DNA of 64,000 nt from Acidobacteriota bacterium (GCA_965205505.1 CBDBHB010000008.1:1024001-1088000), one strand, 5' to 3'. Shown: positions 54,952 to 63,380, counted from the first letter of the stretch. The notes: generated from the letters alone by a model not told the origin. Translations and numbers: made by a program.

Positions 54952-57010
54952 GTGGAGATAGGCGACAAGCGGGGTCACTACGAGGTGGTGGGCCGCCTAG
55001 GCAAAGGCGGCATGGGAGAGGTGTATCGGGCGCGCAGCTTTTGCTACTTCCGGTGTGCAGCTCTGTTGCTTGCCATCCTGCTGGCCCCGAGCTGCTCGGG
55101 CCTTGACTCAGGCCAGCCGCCGCTCACCGCCGAGGTTCCCCTACACCTTGAGGAACATCTCGACGCCGCCACCATCGCGGGCTCTGAGGTGCCCACAGAC
55201 GCTCCGACCGTATTGGAATGGCGCTTCGACAAACTCCAGGAGGATTGGAAGCCGGTAGTCCCGTGGAACCCGACGATAGATCCAGTCGAGGTCACGCAGC
55301 TCGACGACGCGCTGCGAGTCACACTGACGGACGGCACGAGGGGTCCGAACGGCAGGCCTGGGGGCGGCCTCGTTCTCGAGGCGCCTGATTGGGACTACGA
55401 GGATCTGGCGCACCTCGTGGTGCGTGCTCGCAACTCCGATGATGTCAGGGACTTCTGGATCGGCTTCAATCGACGCGAAGGGGCCGGTACGGATACAGAC
55501 TTCCCCAATCCGTTCGAGCACGGAGGCGATGGGGCCCCTGTTGTAAGTGACGGTACGGTGCAAACCTACCGGCTGCGGCTGGATTACTTCGAGGGGCGTC
55601 CGCCGCCTGAGGAATCGATTCGGCAGATCGCCTTGTGGTTCAATCCCCGCAATCTGGCCAGCATCGATATCCTTTCCATCACGCTGATCCCGAAGGTCGC
55701 CAACTACGCTGAGGCGGGTGCAGCCGCGCGCACGGAAATCCGCAACCGGATCTATCGGCAGGCTCTGTATACGCACAAGCCGGGGCGCGTGGAGTATCGG
55801 GTGAGAGTTCCCGAAGCCGGCCGGCTCGACTTCGCCATGGGGGTTCTGCGCGACGACGTGCCCGTGACTTTTCGGGTCACGGCGATCCCTGATGGTGCCG
55901 GGGATGGTGAACCGACCACGGTGTTCGAGGAGTACTACGCGGACAAGGAGGCGTGGGGCCAACGTTCGGTGGATCTGGCTGACCTTGCTGGCCAGACGGT
56001 GACGCTCGGCCTGGAGGCCGACTCCGAGGATGGAGGGCGGGTCGCTTTGTGGGAGCACCGACCGTGACGGGCGACGGGCAGTCGCCTCTTCCCAACGTCG
56101 TCTTCTACGTCTTCGACGGCGGTGCGGCGGACTACATGAGCGTTTACGGCTACAACCGTCGCACGACCCCGACCCTGGAGCGACTGGCCGAGGAGGGCGT
56201 CGTGTTCGAGCGAGCGTACAGCAATTCTGGCTGGACCCTGCAATCGACGGCCTCGTTCATGACTTCCCTGCAGACGAGTGTGACGGGGGGCTTGACCGGC
56301 GGCAACACCTACCCTGTGCCTGCTGAGGCCGTGACCATGGCCGAGCACATGCACCGGGCCGGCTACCAGACCGCGGTGTTCACGGGGAACCCCAACGCCG
56401 GGACGTTGAGCGATCTCCAGCGTGGGGTCGATCTGTTCCGGGAGGACTGGGAGGACTTCTCATACTTCGGTAGGAGTAATCGCAAGGAGTCCTCGAAGTA
56501 CCTCCATGAGGGGTTCTGGATCTGGCGGGAGGACTATCCCAGCCAGCCGTTCTGGGCCTTCCAGACCACGGACACGCATGGGGACTTTCCGGCGCCGCCA
56601 CCTTTTGGCGGGCTCTTTGTCACAGCGGATGCGTGGGAGAGCTGGAATGAGTCGTTTGAGCGCCTGAGTAAGGTTGGCGGGCCTGGTCGCTATGGCGGGC
56701 GTGATCCCTATTCGCCCGCCTGGGATTCCACGGGGATCAGCCGGACGGCATTCTACTCTGTGGCGAAGGGCCTGTACGACGAAGCAATGGCCCACAACGA
56801 CTATCGGCTCGGGCAGCTCATCGACCGGCTGAAGGCTGAAGGCTGAAGGGGAGTGGGAAAACACGCTGTTGATCATCGGGGGCGATCACAGCATCCGGGC
56901 GGCCGCCGGCGACATGGGCCTCCTGCTCAACGACTCGCTGCCTCCCCCATGGAGCCAGCCGATCCTCCGGCCCACGATCTCTAGGGTGCCCCTCATGTTC
57001 GTATGGGCCG
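54952..57010 (+). pseudogene. Sulfatase-family gene, doubly frameshifted and truncated by IS; kinase fragment at the 5' end
   Basis: PNVVFYVFD, YGY.R.TTP.L..LA.EGV.FERAYS.SGWT..S.AS, LYDE...ND...GQL, NTLLIIGGDH; frameshift at about 56051 (missing G), 7-bp expansion at 56827-56847, IS at 57011. Confidence 0.8.
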
Positions 57011-57044
57011 TGACCTGCCCCAAGTGTTGAGGCCACTTCGTAAC

Positions 57045-57783
57045 TCATAGAATCGGTGCTGGCAAGAGGTTGTTGCAGCTGGCGGAGCGGAGCGTAGCCG
57101 GCTTTAACAACGTCGCTTTCGGTGCAGGCGGCCGATAGCCCAACGAGCTGTGTGGCCGCACCTGGTTGTATTTGCGGCGCCAGGCTTGCACCAAGCTCTG
57201 CGCCTCCTTGAGCGTGTAGAAGATCTCCCCGTTCAGCAGCTCGTCGCGTAGCTTGCCGTTGAAGCTCTCCACATAGCCGTTTTCCCACGGCGAGCCGGGC
57301 TCGATGAACAGCGTCCCCACGCCGAGCCTACCGAGCCAGTCGCGAACCGCCTGGGCAGTGAACTCCGGTCCGTTATCCGACCGGATGTGCTCAGGTATGC
57401 CTCGGTGCACGAACAACCACCCGAGCCGCTCTAGCACGTCCTCACAGTTGAGCTTCCGCGCCACGTCGATCGCCAGGCTTTCTCGCGTGTACTCATCGAC
57501 GATCGTCAGCAGCCTCATAGCTCGACCGTCGTGCCTCCGGTGGTGGACGAAGTCATACGCCCAGACGTGATCTTTGCGCTGTGATCGCAGGCGGATGCAC
57601 GAGCCATCGTTGAGCCATAGTCGGCTCCGTCAGCATCTGCTCTTGTTGCGGCCCTCTTGGCACGTACCTCTGCGTCGTGCGTGGTTGTTTCAGTACCCGA
57701 CACGCCCGCCTCTCCGAGACGCCCAGTCGCCCCCGTACATGCGCCACCGCCTCGCGCCGCCGAGCTGGGCTCAGAAGTTTCCC
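57045..57783 (-). pseudogene. IS3-family transposase OrfB with internal deletion and frameshift
   Basis: VSERRACRVL...RY jumps near 57628 to another frame ([20 protein letters not shown]); rve core [24 protein letters not shown] intact; the YGYRR/NHKRV segment is missing. Confidence 0.85.
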
Positions 57784-58049
57784 TCCGCCACTTCCTTCAG
57801 GATCGACAGGTCGAGCTCTTTTTCCGCCACCAGCTTCTTGAGCCGGACATTCTCCTTCTCCAGCTGCTTGAGCTTCCTGGCCTGGTTGAGCTTCAGTCCC
57901 CCGTATTCCCGTCGCCACCGATAGTAAGTGTGCTCGGTGATCGCTAGCTTGCGGCAGGCATCCTTGACCGTCGCACCTCGAGCCAGCTCCACTTCAGCCT
58001 CCCGGAGCTTCCGGACGATCTGCTCGGCACTGTGCCTCTTCGTCGGCAT
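57771..58049 (-). CDS. IS3-family transposase OrfA
   Basis: HTH ACRKLAITEHTYYRWRREYGG and leucine zipper LKQLEKENVRLKKLVAE; GGAGG RBS. Confidence 0.92.
   Translation of the reverse strand: MPTKRHSAEQIVRKLREAEVELARGATVKDACRKLAITEHTYYRWRREYGGLKLNQARKLKQLEKENVRLKKLVAEKELDLSILKEVAEGNF
57777..57783 (-). promoter_or_regulatory. -1 programmed frameshift heptamer G_GGA_AAC
   Basis: X_XXY_YYZ in the OrfA frame just before its stop; downstream GCCCAG...CTGGGC stem. Confidence 0.75.
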
Positions 58050-58128
58050 TCTGACCTCCCCTTTTCGACCCAGATCGTGAGATTACTTCTGGATCCGATT
58101 TGGGGGGTCAGGTCATCACGGACAGGAG

Positions 58129-58512
58129 GTGCTGCGTTCACTGGAAGCCGCCGTGAGAGCCATGAAAGAGGCGACGCTACAGCACCCGGGCACGTCGGCC
58201 AAGGCGACGTTGCCCGCGAAGAAGAAGGCGCCGACCGGGAAGAAGGCACGCAAGAGGCGCCAGCAACCGAACCGGAGACGGAGCTACGAGCTTGCGCTGG
58301 AGTTGCTAAGCGGCAGCAGCGAGTCGATGACGGCACCCGAAATCCAGCGTAGCCTCAGCAAACAGGGCCAGGGGTTCGCCCACCAGGCGATCGTGTACGG
58401 GCTGGAGAAGCTCGTAGATACACATAAGGCCAAGAGGCGCAAGACGAAGGGGCGCGTGAGGTACCGGGCGATCCCTGAGGAGCCGGCGGCGGAGGAATCT
58501 GCAACCCTCTGA
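58129..58512 (+). CDS. Basic putative winged-helix DNA-binding protein, probably 5'-truncated by the IS
   Basis: Lys/Arg-rich linker, MTAPEIQRSL...AIVYGLEKLV...GRVRY wHTH-like pattern. Confidence 0.5.
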   Translation: MLRSLEAAVRAMKEATLQHPGTSAKATLPAKKKAPTGKKARKRRQQPNRRRSYELALELLSGSSESMTAPEIQRSLSKQGQGFAHQAIVYGLEKLVDTHKAKRRKTKGRVRYRAIPEEPAAEESATL

Positions 58513-58587: not shown

Positions 58588-59667
58588 GTGAGTCTATGGG
58601 AGTTCCGAGAGAAGACCATATTGCCCCTTGAACCGACCGTCTTCGCCGACGAGGGGGTTCTCGAACAGGCGCATCTGCAAAAAGTCCTCGCCAGGAACAT
58701 ATCCGCTATCGATCCGGATCTGCTCGTCATCGCGGAGGAGTACTCCGCCTGGGAAGATAGTCGACGCCGGATCGACATCTTGGCCCTGGACCGGGAAGCG
58801 AATCTGGTTGTCATCGAGCTGAAACGCACGGAAGACGGAGGGCACATGGACCTCCAAGCCATCCGTTATGCGGCAATGGTCTCGACGATGACGTTCGCGA
58901 AGGCGGTTGAAGCGTTCGAGCATTACCTTCGCAGGTCGGGCGTCGATGATGACGCCGAGGTCAAGATGCTCGAGTTCCTCGAATGGGACGAGCCAGTCGA
59001 GGAAGACTTCGCCAACGATGTGTCCATCATACTGGCGTCCGCAGAGTTTTCGCGGGAGATCACAACGGCGGTCCTGTGGCTGAACAGCAAGTACGCGATC
59101 GATATCCGCTGTGTCCGACTGAAGCCATACAAGCTGGATGAGCGCCTCGTGCTGGACATTCAGCAGATTGTCCCGCTCAGAGAGGCGACCGAGTATCAGG
59201 TGCAGCTGCGTGAGAAGGCTGTCGAGCAGCGAACCGCAAGGCAAGGGAGCCGGACGTGCTACGACCTAACGGTGGCGGGCCGCACGTACTCAAAATTGCC
59301 CAAGAACGGGCTCATGCTGCACATCGCGCGAGCCGCGGTGAACTCTGGCGTGCGACCGGAGGAACTCGCGGTGTTCCTCCCCCATCGGGACCGGAGCTGG
59401 GTCTCGGTGGAGGGCGAGTGCTCCAACGAGGAATTCCTCCAAAGGCTGAGCGATGTACGCAGCGTGCGCGGTAGGCCGATCGACCCAAAGCGTTACTTCA
59501 CAGGCCCAGATGAGCTCATCCTCTTTGACGGTCGAACCTACGCATTCACAACCCAGTGGGGAAAGGGCACCGTGGAGGTGGCCAAGCGGGTGGCTGCCAG
59601 CTTTGGAGATCTGGCGATCGAGGTACAGCCGTTCGGCGGGGAAGACCCAGGCGAGGGCCCGCTGTGA
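58588..59667 (+). CDS. NucS-like PD-(D/E)xK endonuclease with extra C-terminal domain
   Basis: GGAGG RBS and GTG; E..LQ, IAEEY, RIDILALDREANLVVIELKR, LQAIRYAAM; C-terminal PKRYF....YAFTTQWG. Confidence 0.82.
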   Translation: MSLWEFREKTILPLEPTVFADEGVLEQAHLQKVLARNISAIDPDLLVIAEEYSAWEDSRRRIDILALDREANLVVIELKRTEDGGHMDLQAIRYAAMVSTMTFAKAVEAFEHYLRRSGVDDDAEVKMLEFLEWDEPVEEDFANDVSIILASAEFSREITTAVLWLNSKYAIDIRCVRLKPYKLDERLVLDIQQIVPLREATEYQVQLREKAVEQRTARQGSRTCYDLTVAGRTYSKLPKNGLMLHIARAAVNSGVRPEELAVFLPHRDRSWVSVEGECSNEEFLQRLSDVRSVRGRPIDPKRYFTGPDELILFDGRTYAFTTQWGKGTVEVAKRVAASFGDLAIEVQPFGGEDPGEGPL

Positions 59668-59828
59668 TCTGCCGGGCAGGCCCAACACGTCCAGAAGAAT
59701 AGCGGCCCAGAGCGTTGCAGAACTCCTCGTATTGCCGAGGCTCCCAGAAGCATACCTGCATCTGAACGCGGCCCCAGCCTCGACCCTGAAAGATCGTCTC
59801 ATCCTCTCGGTGTTGGGTGCCGCGTCGC

Positions 59829-59865
59829 GCAGCTCCCGGCCTACGGGCCGGGAGAGGATTGAGGG
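59829..59865 (+). CRISPR. Solitary type I-C-like CRISPR repeat unit (not an array)
   Basis: GCAGCTCCCGGCCTACGGGCCGGGAGAGGATTGAGGG: 37 nt, 9-bp stem with TACG loop, GAGGATTGA tail resembling the I-C ...GGATTGAAAC end. Confidence 0.55.
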
Positions 59866-59871
59866 GTTGTG

Positions 59872-59900
59872 CGCTTCCCCCGCACGCGCGGGGATGGACC
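59872..59900 (+). CRISPR. Solitary type I-E-like CRISPR repeat unit (not an array)
   Basis: CGCTTCCCCCGCACGCGCGGGGATGGACC: 29 nt, CCCCGC-ACGC-GCGGGG stem and ATGGACC handle, the typical I-E pattern. Confidence 0.75.
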
Positions 59901-60120
59901 TGGTGTGTGACCACAGTCCCCCTGACCTGCCCCTCGTCAAGCTGTGAGCCCTTGATCTGTTCCGCGGCGGGATATCGCCAAATCGCTTTCAGCGAATCGA
60001 ATCGTTCCAACAGCCCATCGTGGCACTCGCTGGGAATCACGATCGCCCCGACAAAGGAGAGCGCGTTGCGACTGGCCGAGAGGATTCGCAAAACACCTGA
60101 TTCGTCCGGGATACGTGCAT
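59901..60120 (-). pseudogene. DUF3800-like N-terminal remnant
   Basis: ATG CAC GTA, 1-nt frameshift, then DESG...SFVGAIVIP...QIKGSQL; breaks off at the repeat pair. Confidence 0.5.
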
Positions 60121-60534
60121 CGTACAAATACTGGAGCACCCGCTCGGGGGGTCGCGCGGGATCAGCTGCGGCCGCCGCGGCCCGCGGGTGAATCTGGCTG
60201 AAGCTCCACCGATGACGCCCTGGTTTGGCCGCCTTGCTTCACAAGGTACTCACTACCGGCGGTGGTGATTTCCAGGCAGCGCTCTTTGTGGATGTACCTG
60301 ATGAGCCCCTGCGTGATGGACATCCCCGGACCAACCCGGCGGGATACTTGCTCGATGAATGCGCGGCTCCCGCACCTTGGCATATCGTAAGTTCAGCCAA
60401 CGCATCGTGTCCCTGTCCTGATCGCGTCTCGTCCTATACCCTTCGCGTCTGCAAAACGTCCGTGGGATCCGTGGGCTTGCTACGACACGCCACGAAGACC
60501 GGCCTGCTTCGCGCGTGGTGCGCTTTTCGCTTGT

Positions 60535-61041
60535 TTATTGATCTTGTTCGGCGGTTCGAGGCATCCGCATCACTGGAGCGACGAATTGGGGCAATTGAGC
60601 TCGGTTCGTGATGCTCGTAAGAAACTCACGCCAGTAGGGCCAAGCATTGAACAGAGCATTCCAGTGTGCGAACTGGTTCGCGTCCTCCGAACTCAACGGA
60701 TCGTCACCCTTGACTTCGTAGAGAACTCGGAAGCCTGCTCCGACGCGATAAGGAGGGTCTTCTTCGTCATCAAACAGAGTCACGAACGATAGGATGCATC
60801 CCAGCAGTGTTGTGTCTTCGGCGACGTTCCATTCCACGTTAACTCCGATCTCCGGGGTGGCTTCGGGTAGGGCTACCTCAGCGATCACGGCGTTATCGCT
60901 ACGATCGAAAAAAGCGCCGAGCAACTCGACGTTGAGAATCTCCACGCGGGCAGCTACGCGCCCCACCGCTTCAGCGTCGTACTCGGGCACTTCGGGCACG
61001 TCTGTGCCGTTCTCAACGGTCTTGTTCGACTGCGCGCTCAT
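60535..61041 (-). CDS. SecB-like chaperone (TAC system)
   Basis: Acidic 168 aa; F.VLY.V, F...NA..NAWPYWREFL.S.T.R..LP...P SecB-like motif; ATGA overlap with the antitoxin stop. Confidence 0.8.
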   Translation of the reverse strand: MSAQSNKTVENGTDVPEVPEYDAEAVGRVAARVEILNVELLGAFFDRSDNAVIAEVALPEATPEIGVNVEWNVAEDTTLLGCILSFVTLFDDEEDPPYRVGAGFRVLYEVKGDDPLSSEDANQFAHWNALFNAWPYWREFLTSITNRAQLPQFVAPVMRMPRTAEQDQ

Positions 61042-61484
61042 GCTGCTCTCGAGATCGGCGTCCCATCGACAACACGAAGGGCGGGTGTGGTCCGCCACCT
61101 CGGCGCTGTCCTTGGCATCTTGAACTCGTGGAATCGATAGCCTGGCCGGGGGCGGAGTCGCGAGAGCCAAGCTGGAGCCGGAGGATCGTTGAGTGCAGGT
61201 GTTCCCGTACGATCCCGCACTGGAACCGGGTCCAGTTCGAACCGCAGACCCATCGCCCAACCCAAGGCGGCCAACGACCGCAGCGTCAGGTTTTCGCTAC
61301 CGCTCAGGATCTGACTGACTCGGCTCTCGGACACATCCAAGCGCTTGGCGAGTTCGCGTTGCGACAATCCGAGGGAGTCGCGTAGCGCGATCAAGGTGTC
61401 GATTGCCTCGTTGACGACGACCTGCTCTTCATAGGCTCGTCGGACCACTGGGTTTGTTAGCGCACTGCTCGGCAGGTTGGTCAA
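61038..61484 (-). CDS. XRE/HigA-like HTH antitoxin with C-terminal ChAD-like tail
   Basis: LGLSQRELAKRLDVSESRVSQILSG.ENLTLRSL; about 55-aa disordered tail ending RAA; TTGA overlap with the toxin stop. Confidence 0.85.
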   Translation of the reverse strand: MTNLPSSALTNPVVRRAYEEQVVVNEAIDTLIALRDSLGLSQRELAKRLDVSESRVSQILSGSENLTLRSLAALGWAMGLRFELDPVPVRDRTGTPALNDPPAPAWLSRLRPRPGYRFHEFKMPRTAPRWRTTPALRVVDGTPISRAA

Positions 61485-61918
61485 CGCTTCTCCTCCGCTG
61501 TGGCTTCGCGCCAGGCGCTCGTGATCGAGTCGCCCTGTTCAATCTCTTGCTTCTTCAGTTTGTTCTTGGTCTTCGTGAACCCGCACGCCAACCACACCGT
61601 CTGGTGATCTCGAAAGCCCAGCGCCCGGAGGTGGGGAGGCGTGGAGCCCGGTTTGGTCACCTTCAGTTCGTGCAAGCGATGTTTGGATGTCGGTATGGTC
61701 TCCCAACGACCGGCAGGCGGACGTGCGGACCGGAAAGAGGTCTCTAGCACCTTGCAGGCGGCCAAGAACTGCCCGGTACCTTTCTCGCCCAGTTCGGTGT
61801 CATGCCAGTCTTTCGCAGGCATCGAACCGTTTGGCAAGCGCATCGCTCTCACGGTGAGCCAGTCCCCATCGAAGAGAACATCGTCGTCTGGCTCTCCGAT
61901 CCCGGATACTTTAGCCAT
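61481..61918 (-). CDS. RelE/HigB (Gp49-like) toxin
   Basis: NGSMPAKDW, LHELKV....LRALGF....WLACGFTKTKNK...EIE pattern; first gene of a toxin-HTH-SecB operon. Confidence 0.8.
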   Translation of the reverse strand: MAKVSGIGEPDDDVLFDGDWLTVRAMRLPNGSMPAKDWHDTELGEKGTGQFLAACKVLETSFRSARPPAGRWETIPTSKHRLHELKVTKPGSTPPHLRALGFRDHQTVWLACGFTKTKNKLKKQEIEQGDSITSAWREATAEEKR

Positions 61919-62012
61919 AGATTAAGTCCCAAATCAAGGCGAGAATACCATTCCCCTCGTGCTGCTAGCGCAATCGGACGACCCCTTAGGCGACATCGGA
62001 CGTTACCTCGGC

Positions 62013-62132
62013 GACATGGAAGACGATGAGGAATCGGGGGTCTCCGAACCGTACTCGTTGCAGCAGTGTGCCGAGGCCCTTTCTATGCCGTTGGAGCGCC
62101 TGCAGTAATGGGTGGCGGCGATTCACCGGAAG
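62013..62132 (+). pseudogene. Possible McrB-like pre-AAA linker remnant
   Basis: EPYSLQQCAEALSMPLERLQ*WVAAIHRK with an internal TAA; resembles the segment just before the McrB Walker A. Confidence 0.35.
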
Positions 62133-62456
62133 CCAGGGGCCGCGCCCCCCGTGTCATTCACGCTTGCCCTCTCCTGTGGTTGACTTCGCTAGCAAAAAGA
62201 AATCGTTCCTCGCTCTAGCAACGGTGACGTGCTGGTGCGGTTGCGGATGCGATACAGGGAACCGGTCGCTCCTCTTGCCAGCCCACTTCCAAGCACCAGC
62301 GACTCTTCTGTACGACATGAGGAATGCTCTCCCTCCGGGTTGCCGGTCAATGACTTGCTCCGACCTCTGATCCCTGTAACGGCCCGACGGATTCCTTGCC
62401 ACGGGCGATGCCTCAGGGCTCTATCTCTTGAGCTTCGCGGCAGGTTCGATGGTTTG

Positions 62457-63380
62457 CTAATCGTCAGCGGGCGAAGCCATCGCCGAGCTCTCCCGCAGCT
62501 GGATCCATTCGTTGCGGAGCTCTCGGAGCGGCGTCCCGTCGAGCCGAGGGACACGCCACGCCTGCCAGCCGTCGCAGGCTACGACGTTCGCAGCTTCCTT
62601 CGCAGCACGGGACGGCGATGAGAAGCTTCTGCCGGCCTCCAGCTCGATGGAACCGTTTCTTAGAACGGTGGCGGTGTAGGACTCGCCCAGTCGTGGGCGG
62701 TCCCATCGAAGCTGCTCTCCCACTTCGATGAGAACTGCATCCAGTAGATCCGCCATCCGGACGCGTCTTCCTCTAATCTTTAAGTGTGCAACACCCTGCT
62801 CCGCAGCGGCGGCCCCGAGTTCGGGCTCGTAATCACTGCCCACGTCAAGGAAGCGTCTGCCCGCCCGGTCCTCGTAGATCGCGACGGTAATCACCTCAAC
62901 GGGCACGCCGTTCTCGCGCAGGAAATCCAGCGCCGATTCTGTGCGTCCATGAAAGTCCCCGGCCACAAGGACAAGGCTGGGAGTCTTACTCAGCGTCAAT
63001 GGGGTAGCGGACTCAGTGAATTCCTGCCAGTCCGTGAAGAAAGCTTTCGGGCCACCCTGATATAGGTCCGACAACTCGTCGAGACTCGTGGTCCGCGCCC
63101 AGCCTGCGTACTCCAGACATTGGGCGAGTTGTCGTCGATCGAGATCCCGCTTGACCTCGATCACGACTACGTCTGCCTTCTGGTTGAGCGCAACGACGTC
63201 CGGGCGACCGCCGTTCGTGAGACTGGCCTGTCGAGCCACCGGAAACAGTGTGTCGCCGGTGAACTCATCGAGGTTCGCCCAGAGAAGGTCCTCGATCAGG
63301 CTCTCGTACAGTTCACGCCCGCCGCGCAGCTGCCGGAACGGCACGAGCTCCTTGTTATTGTCGATCTCAAACAGCGGCAT
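62457..63380 (-). CDS. NucS-like endonuclease fused to a RAMA modified-DNA reader domain
   Basis: E..IEDL, RPDVVAL....VVVIEVKR, Q.LEYAGW; C-terminal DLLDA.LI..GE.L.W....YTATV..NG.I....SFSSPS.AA......DGW..W. Confidence 0.82.
   Translation of the reverse strand: MPLFEIDNNKELVPFRQLRGGRELYESLIEDLLWANLDEFTGDTLFPVARQASLTNGGRPDVVALNQKADVVVIEVKRDLDRRQLAQCLEYAGWARTTSLDELSDLYQGGPKAFFTDWQEFTESATPLTLSKTPSLVLVAGDFHGRTESALDFLRENGVPVEVITVAIYEDRAGRRFLDVGSDYEPELGAAAAEQGVAHLKIRGRRVRMADLLDAVLIEVGEQLRWDRPRLGESYTATVLRNGSIELEAGRSFSSPSRAAKEAANVVACDGWQAWRVPRLDGTPLRELRNEWIQLRESSAMASPADD

Follow-up and report, generated by a model that had tools for sequence, protein, structure and literature searches.

A stretch of 64,000 nucleotides from the genome of an Acidobacteriota bacterium (GCA_965205505.1, CBDBHB010000008.1:1024001-1088000; hereafter the window) carries, at positions 59829-59900, two solitary units that resemble the repeats of clustered regularly interspaced short palindromic repeat (CRISPR) arrays, the first of the type I-C family and the second of type I-E. 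How did single repeats of two different subtypes come to stand within a few nucleotides of each other, in a neighborhood with candidate defense genes and no CRISPR-associated (cas) genes, and does the pair have a role where it stands? At a probability of roughly 55%, the segment is debris of I-C and I-E arrays in a strain-specific defense island eroded by insertion sequences (IS). This reading is favored because of the missing Cas genes, the rearrangement scars on either side, the non-conservation of the pair, the parallel relics in the same genome and genus, the dozens of IS copies and the lack of a recognizable sigma-70-like promoter. A preliminary description of the locus had put forward one small RNA that could decoy or program two different Cascade complexes; with no detectable Cas, no recognizable sigma-70-like promoter, no recurrence and scars at both flanks, that proposal could not be kept as the leading one.

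The two units, both confirmed on the plus strand, are well defined. Unit 1 has the sequence and perfect 9-bp hairpin first described for it and consists of GCAGC, the stem CTCCCGGCC/GGCCGGGAG around the loop TACG, and the tail AGGATTGAGGG; the tail, AGGATTGA, closes with GGG at the final 3 nt where AAC would be expected. Unit 2 is composed of GCTT, CCCCCGC-ACGC-GCGGGG and ATGGACC, with a stem of CCCCGC and GCGGGG. Its CCCCGC-N4-GCGGGG-ATGGACC architecture was correctly recognized in the preliminary description, but not its length of 29 nt, as comparison with real repeats places the start one base later, at 59873, and leaves 28 nt. For the same reason the gap between the units is 7 nt and not 6, a trivial correction.

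Unit 1 can be assigned to type I-C. In Rfam it matches CRISPR-DR9 at 30.5 bits (E = 2e-5 in a search of 171 nt and 1.2e-4 in a search of 1001 nt), which falls short of the gathering score of 45 for this family, and a scan of the whole window at the Rfam gathering threshold is therefore empty. The alignment takes in the first 34 of 37 model positions, with GGG replacing the final AAC, and places the stem and loop at positions 5-26 with all 9 pairs standard (cmscan). Across a collection of 185,579 species genomes used for the pattern scans, the core pattern of unit 1 was recovered at 35 loci, of which 18 hold 2-62 exact copies with a period of roughly 70-75 nt; the remainder are 7 single matches beside variant repeats, 1 match at a locus edge and 9 that are apparently solitary. 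The closest repeat, from a Chloroflexota metagenome-assembled genome (MAG; L044), agrees with unit 1 at 31-32 of 37 positions and likewise has a T-A first stem pair, which is G-C or A-T in the other 26 of the 27 distinct repeats collected. The conserved tail GAGGATTGAAAC, the future 5′ handle, is represented in unit 1 by GAGGATTGA followed by GGG, where 24 of the 27 distinct repeats end in AAC; terminal array repeats can differ at the 3′ end, as with GACAC in L044. Searches with tblastn identified I-C Cas homologues at 12 of the 35 loci and I-E Cas at none, and an array of 57 repeats of the unit 1 family (L046) sits after Cas8c/Csd1, Cas7/Csd2, Cas4 and Cas1c. The GGG ending, for which the preliminary description had considered the I-C assignment the weaker of the two, is seen in the CRISPR-DR9 alignment, and the assignment stands regardless.

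The type I-E assignment of unit 2 is likewise upheld, in this case through identity to array repeats, as there is no match at all to Rfam. The 25-mer core, TCCCCCGCACGCGCGGGGATGGACC, is the exact repeat core at 21 loci in the genome collection, 16 of which have 3 to 51 exact copies with a period of ~61 nt, and all 28 nt are identical (28/28) to the first repeat of an array in a Gemmatimonadetes MAG (L068). I-E Cas homologues were detected by tblastn at 7 of these 21 loci, compared to none for I-C Cas, and the array at L085 is preceded by a full I-E operon (Cas3, Cse1, Cse2, Cas7e, Cas5e, Cas6e, and Cas1e). The same repeat is present in four of four public sequencing runs, at depths in the thousands and with repeat-spacer-repeat joints; two of the runs represent the sample that holds this genome and two hold relatives' contigs of the gene upstream of the units, a phage-defense candidate of family PDC-S11. 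Two further I-E arrays can be noted here. In L068 (1576-1940) the second repeat is split by a ~270-nt insertion, and a 97.8-kb IMG/VR contig (L244:3040-3200, minus strand) has a three-repeat mini-array with a near-identical repeat, the last copy of which is degenerate.

A likeness of GC-rich hairpins to CRISPR repeats by chance would draw on the G+C content of the genome (64%), on the CCCCGC-N4-GCGGGG hairpins that are common as repetitive extragenic palindromic (REP)-like elements in other bacteria, and on the Rfam score of unit 1 under the gathering threshold, but it is hardly credible in view of 25-28-nt exact identity to working array repeats, an Rfam match at E 2e-5, the adjacency of the two units, and zero matches to the unit patterns in 100 shuffles of the window. 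By these sequence comparisons, a pairing through chance is effectively refuted.

Neither unit has a second copy in the window or elsewhere in the 5.98-Mb genome (9 contigs, 96% complete), which excludes a REP element or a miniature inverted-repeat transposable element (MITE). Not even a decayed extra repeat occurs in 59300-60500, where the best partial matches (19/37 and 16/28) are at the ~99.9th percentile of the window, in agreement with the earlier observation that neither unit has a second copy at array spacing. An assembly chimera formed through the high-copy I-E repeat was also rejected. Two contigs, X1 (1661 nt, covering 59500-60300) and X3 (2420 nt, covering 59767-60300), span both units with 0 differences, and read depth is equal on either side of the units. 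As X1 and X3 derive from one sample, possibly the source of the window itself, they exclude a binning or scaffolding error and are not an independent replication. The open reading frames (ORFs) that overlap the units are without family or homologue support. Among them, a truncated DUF3800 gene (59546-60139, minus strand) was considered and dismissed, with no Pfam match even at E ≤ 10 and no homologue among candidates of 108-345 aa; a match to the DUF3800-XI RNA is weak (9.1 bits, E of 5 to 9).

As previously reported, the 64 kb yielded no cas gene, and the search for I-C or I-E operons elsewhere in the genome was also negative. Profile searches of the genome returned zero matches for Cas1 (PF01867), Cas7e (PF09344), and Cas5 (PF09704). 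The TIGR01869 model (Cas7e) was without a match in all five congeners, this genome counted in, with the control for the two Cas7e models positive only in Thermus thermophilus and their sensitivity accordingly limited. A tblastn search of the genome with seven I-E and four I-C Cas proteins had zero matches at E ≤ 1e-3, and the same 11 queries detected cas genes at 19 of 56 array loci as a positive control.

A further reading concerns the spacing of the units. Positions 59866-59900 measure 35 nt, which fits the spacer length implied by the I-C array period, and terminate exactly with the I-E repeat. The segment might then represent a one-spacer I-C mini-array whose spacer was captured from an I-E array and would act as a guide against I-E repeats. 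This is very improbable: at 59901 there is no second I-C repeat (the best local match, 19/37, is at the null level), the 22 nt before the IS end are unlike a repeat, the 3′ end of unit 1 that would provide the 5′ handle of the guide is altered, and neither an I-C cas gene nor a target was found in the genome.

The immediate surroundings of the units contribute to the case for debris. Both repeats lie in a ~120-nt patch bounded by rearrangement marks, as there is a breakpoint at 59800 and an IS end at 59923. On the left, the runs of two studies contain contigs of related strains that match the window (~94-96% identity) as far as 59800, beyond which they enter one and the same unrelated sequence. 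On the right, the sequence TGACCTGCCCCT, the terminal inverted repeat of the IS3-family elements of this genome, stands alone 22 nt past unit 2, and no right-hand end that would make a MITE of it was found in 59000-62500. Its 11-12 nt open all 17 of the IS ends inspected, short exact matches fall on IS boundaries, and the chance of encountering an IS terminal repeat within 100 nt is estimated here at ~1e-4. Dozens of IS3-family copies are distributed genome-wide at 82-92% identity (BLAST), in several subfamilies that all start with TGACCTG(C/A)CCC. A degenerate copy in the window itself is about 87-92% identical to the others and has an internal deletion near 57620.

Erosion of arrays by the same elements is directly seen in the genus. 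The congener G002 has an orphan I-E array (C30:289619-289990; L098 and L246:10620-11000) with six repeats of TGTTCCCCGCACGCGCGGGGATGAACC and a degenerate terminal one, in which an end of an element from this IS family interrupts the first repeat and the sequence on the far side of the element is not array; no Cas7e was found in the G002 genome. In addition, the genome under study has an orphan three-repeat mini-array (C9:64051-64229; L248:8051-8229) with a period of 72-73 nt. Its repeats score 37.8, 27.2, and 37.8 bits to CRISPR-DR16 (gathering score 35), and the relic is followed by a truncated serine-recombinase-like N-terminus and, ~160 nt downstream, by an IS3-family left end. The two spacers of this mini-array have only short matches to their own genome, none with E below 0.02. 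The genome holds three CRISPR repeat families (I-C, I-E, and CRISPR-DR16) and no detectable cas gene.

As reconstructed from these marks, the segment would read from left to right as sequence flanking the PDC-S11 gene on its 3′ side (to 59800), a junction, 28 unassigned nucleotides, an I-C repeat with its last 3 nt lost or degenerate, 7-10 nt, an I-E repeat, a 22-nt stump, and the IS3 end at 59923. The 22 nt are possibly what is left of a spacer that once followed the I-E repeat. IS-associated deletions and rearrangements would have stripped away spacers, all further repeats, and whatever cas genes were present, and the two survivors would come from arrays formerly at this position or in a donor, with both their origin and the order of events a matter of reconstruction. 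The preliminary description had argued that the decay of a single array would not easily yield two repeat types 6 nt apart. This is correct for one array, but the objection fails for successive IS-associated deletions because such erosion is directly seen in the lineage. The segment is most likely without specific activity in this genome, and it may be transcribed passively as the predicted 3′ tail of the upstream gene.

A number of observations weigh against an origin as debris. Both units are whole and undecayed, one with a perfect 9-bp stem and the other with 28/28 identity to a working repeat, and two entire repeats with 7 nt between them would be a rare product of random deletions. Neither further repeats nor recognizable spacers remain at array spacing, and the flanking 28-mer and 22-mer, as putative spacer stumps, have no exact match in viral contigs. 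An I-C-type repeat was not found in 40 relatives and no record is shared among the 35 unit 1 and 21 unit 2 exact-pattern loci, such that there is no known donor with adjacent I-C and I-E arrays. As the assembly is 96% complete, it is possible that a cas locus is situated on the missing DNA. The units also follow a gene in the sense direction, no terminator-like site was detected ahead of them, and they could therefore be transcribed. Finally, I-E arrays with a repeat identical to that of unit 2 are very abundant in the four public runs, so that a decoy could be useful on DNA moving between hosts.

The latter points would suit a functional solitary-repeat RNA akin to the RNA anti-CRISPRs (Racrs), in which the hairpins, probably transcribed as the 3′ portion of the PDC-S11 mRNA, would bind Cas5c (I-C) and Cas6e (I-E) and sequester Cas proteins, to the benefit of the island on its entry into hosts with such systems. 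By analogy with the published cases this is a possible but doubtful interpretation. Validated Racrs include I-C and I-E types (Camara-Wilpert et al. 2023, PMC10651486). In RacrIF1 the stem-loop is essential and changes to the 5′ handle are tolerated (PMC10651486); both stems are intact in the window and, given that tolerance, the GGG ending may be of no consequence for unit 1. The position in the 3′ flank of a gene has a precedent in RacrIC1, which shares its transcript with acrIC5, the gene 11 nt ahead of it (PMC10651486). The units are intergenic and solitary, the island is strain-specific, and identical I-E repeats abound in the sample of this very genome. Conversely, ~90% of the prophages that bear solitary repeat units (SRUs) in the Racr survey occur in CRISPR-Cas hosts, with 83% of those matching the host subtype (PMC10651486), whereas no Cas was detected in this host. 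Racr action is dose-dependent and needs a strong promoter (PMC10651486), and no promoter-like site was recognized at the units. Their context is a chromosome with defense genes and not a phage, a plasmid, or an acr locus, the arrangement recurs nowhere among the sequences searched, and the scars of an IS and a breakpoint flank it. A deliberate two-headed decoy on the 3′ end of the PDC-S11 mRNA, which would blunt I-C and I-E systems when a transferable island reaches new hosts, is unlikely.

With respect to expression, no promoter of the sigma-70-like kind, which this host may or may not use, was predicted in 59400-60600; read-through from the PDC-S11 gene is possible. Applied to 11 solitary units from other genomes, the same rule recovers a site for just one. 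There is neither a terminator-like site before the units nor a U-tract or terminator-like call at the units themselves. It should be noted that a solitary I-C-family repeat with the tail ATTGAGAC in a Chthonomonadaceae MAG (L055:3714-3750, minus strand) has a perfect TTGACA-17-TATAAT promoter 30 nt ahead of it, in an 8-kb locus free of cas genes, and that the same MAG holds a second solitary copy (L063). As a candidate for an expressed solitary-repeat RNA, the L055 unit is far stronger than those of the window.

Conservation of the segment in other islands was not seen. The composite of the two units was present in 0 of 40 relatives, and no such repeats turned up at the 137 loci where the upstream gene has homologues. 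In the genome collection, the bridging pattern GAGGATTGA-N8-24-CCCCGC-N4-GCGGGGAT occurred at 22 loci without yielding a composite, all of them I-E arrays with the 9-mer by chance in a spacer or REP-like hairpins after a stop codon. The same pattern in viral contigs and a stricter one in metagenome contigs had no matches, with the understanding that these scans need exact motifs and would miss diverged composites. The phage collection held no similar DNA and the plasmid collection held I-E arrays only; among the latter, a match (H1) with 79% identity over part of both units comes from a normal I-E array of Streptomyces in which a spacer is similar by chance. Five I-E leaders and trailers and the flanks of one solitary unit were compared with 59783-59872, and none was alike. 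Four closely related loci (L108, L109, L168, and L169) have the word pair GAGGATTGAGGG and GGGTTGTG, which was considered as a sign of conservation and judged coincidental. In these loci a conserved word, GGATTGAG-CAC-GGGTTGTG-GGAGGATTGAGGG, shares GAGGATTGAGGG and GGGTTGTG with window positions 59854-59871 and occurs ~750 nt (~1.5 kb in L109) upstream of a PDC-S11 homologue, on the minus strand.

The comparison of homologous loci also bears on whether the hairpins could act without Cas, as a stabilizer of the 3′ end of the PDC-S11 transcript, as a terminator-like barrier for it, or as a preferred IS target, with a CRISPR ancestry that would be incidental. The three consecutive hairpins of the segment begin 161 nt past the stop codon and between convergent genes, and IS ends abut CRISPR repeats both in the window and in G002. 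Such a role is nonetheless quite improbable, as no U-tract or terminator-like call coincides with the units, the fold of 59801-59935 is no stabler than that of shuffled sequences (z = -1.26, not significant), and comparable hairpins occur at none of the 137 homologous loci. A small share of the probability is given to none of the readings considered here.

The segment is part of a small island of candidate defense genes (Table 1).

Table 1. Features of the two-unit segment and its neighborhood, in window coordinates
Feature	Position	Strand	Basis
Degenerate IS3-family copy (rve transposase and orfA fragments)	57006..58121	-	Pfam rve/rve_3, BLAST
Upstream gene, full-length PDC-S11 phage-defense candidate (PD-(D/E)xK / NucS_C-like)	58588..59667	+	PADLOC PDLC04909, E 6e-126
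Breakpoint; related-strain contigs leave the window for unrelated sequence	59800..59801	.	X4 record 18, X3 record 14
Unit 1, solitary 37-nt type I-C-family CRISPR repeat	59829..59865	+	Sequence, Rfam CRISPR-DR9, array comparison
Linker GTTGTGC, 7 nt	59866..59872	+	Unit limits taken from real array repeats
Unit 2, solitary 28-nt type I-E CRISPR repeat	59873..59900	+	Identity to array repeats
22 nt from unit 2 to the IS end, with an imperfect hairpin inside	59901..59922	+	Sequence
Solo 12-nt terminal inverted repeat of the IS3-family, without IS body	59923..59934	+	IS-end comparison
Helix-turn-helix (HTH) gene, Xre-type, PDC-M64-like; overlaps an upstream 145-aa gene without known family	61038..61918	-	Pfam, PADLOC
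Second PDC-S11/S14-like nuclease gene with RAMA domain	62457..63380	-	Pfam RAMA, E 1.9e-23

The units are on the same strand as the upstream PDC-S11 gene, which has a Pfam NucS_C match below the cut-off (E 2e-4) and homologues with a patchy distribution across many phyla. Positions 58985-59531 of this gene have a fragmentary PDC-S11 paralogue in the same genome (C7:706117-706670, ~88% DNA identity), near the end of contig C7, and a separate stretch, 58131-58469, has an 84% paralogue at C8:456772-457092. From their arrangement, the HTH gene and the 145-aa gene look like a toxin-antitoxin pair. The second nuclease gene is matched in PADLOC by both PDC-S11 (E 1.8e-23) and PDC-S14 (E 1.2e-15). A sulfatase fragment and an FAD oxidoreductase gene border the island, the G+C content of which is slightly under that of the genome, and none of the ORFs in 59.7-65 kb passes a filter on G+C at third codon positions (GC3), which the flanking genes pass. 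The PDC-S11 gene and the DNA of 59700-60150 were not found in four congeners and six further members of the family, marking the island as strain-specific. No phage or plasmid genes were recognized by Pfam and PADLOC in 53-72 kb, nor acr-like or mobility genes other than the IS remnants, with no dedicated Acr prediction made. The label of a cas-less defense island given by the preliminary description is fair, with the caveat that the two PDC-S11-like nucleases and the HTH gene are candidate systems.

Should the segment be debris, it would offer a clear and datable case of CRISPR-Cas loss, in which arrays are worn away to single repeats in a lineage rich in IS elements. It would also be a caution for surveys of SRUs and Racrs, since lone perfect repeats can be relics, and lone repeats on chromosomes consequently need checks of their context, including IS ends, breakpoints, and Cas content. 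Should a decoy be true instead, the pair would be the first tandem RNA anti-CRISPR of multiple subtypes and the first on a defense island rather than on a phage or plasmid.

Among the known systems to which the units can be compared, virus-borne mini-CRISPR arrays provide the repeat of L244 that is nearly identical to unit 2, although that array is of one subtype with spacers at a 61-nt period, whereas neither spacers nor a viral setting are seen in the window. The CreA mini-arrays and crRNA (CRISPR RNA)-like regulatory RNAs (10.1101/2024.12.27.630466, 10.1101/2024.10.29.618823) share with the window a repeat-derived element outside of an array and near defense genes. As described there, they pair a repeat with a second, degenerate one and a pseudo-spacer that matches in part, and work with resident Cas effectors; for the window, no second repeat, resident Cas, or target match in the genome was found. 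The resemblance to Racrs and SRUs is closer in form, as the window units are single, complete, intergenic repeat mimics with intact stem-loops, and RacrIC1 is also positioned just behind a protein gene, as the units are behind PDC-S11. Unlike the Racr loci as presented in PMC10651486, the context here is chromosomal, and no recognizable phage or plasmid, acr neighbors, promoter-like site, or host cas genes were found. The window additionally has two subtypes in tandem, for which no equivalent was found in PMC10651486, though its supplementary SRU tables may list one. Lastly, orphan and degenerating arrays (PMC8616872, citing Shmakov et al. 2020) differ from the window in that the latter keeps one repeat per type, with two subtypes 7 nt apart and no recognizable spacer. 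Both have in common repeats identical, or nearly so, to those of working arrays in genomes where no cas genes were found and damage by mobile elements alongside, and further orphan arrays are present in the same genome (C9) and in the same genus (G002).

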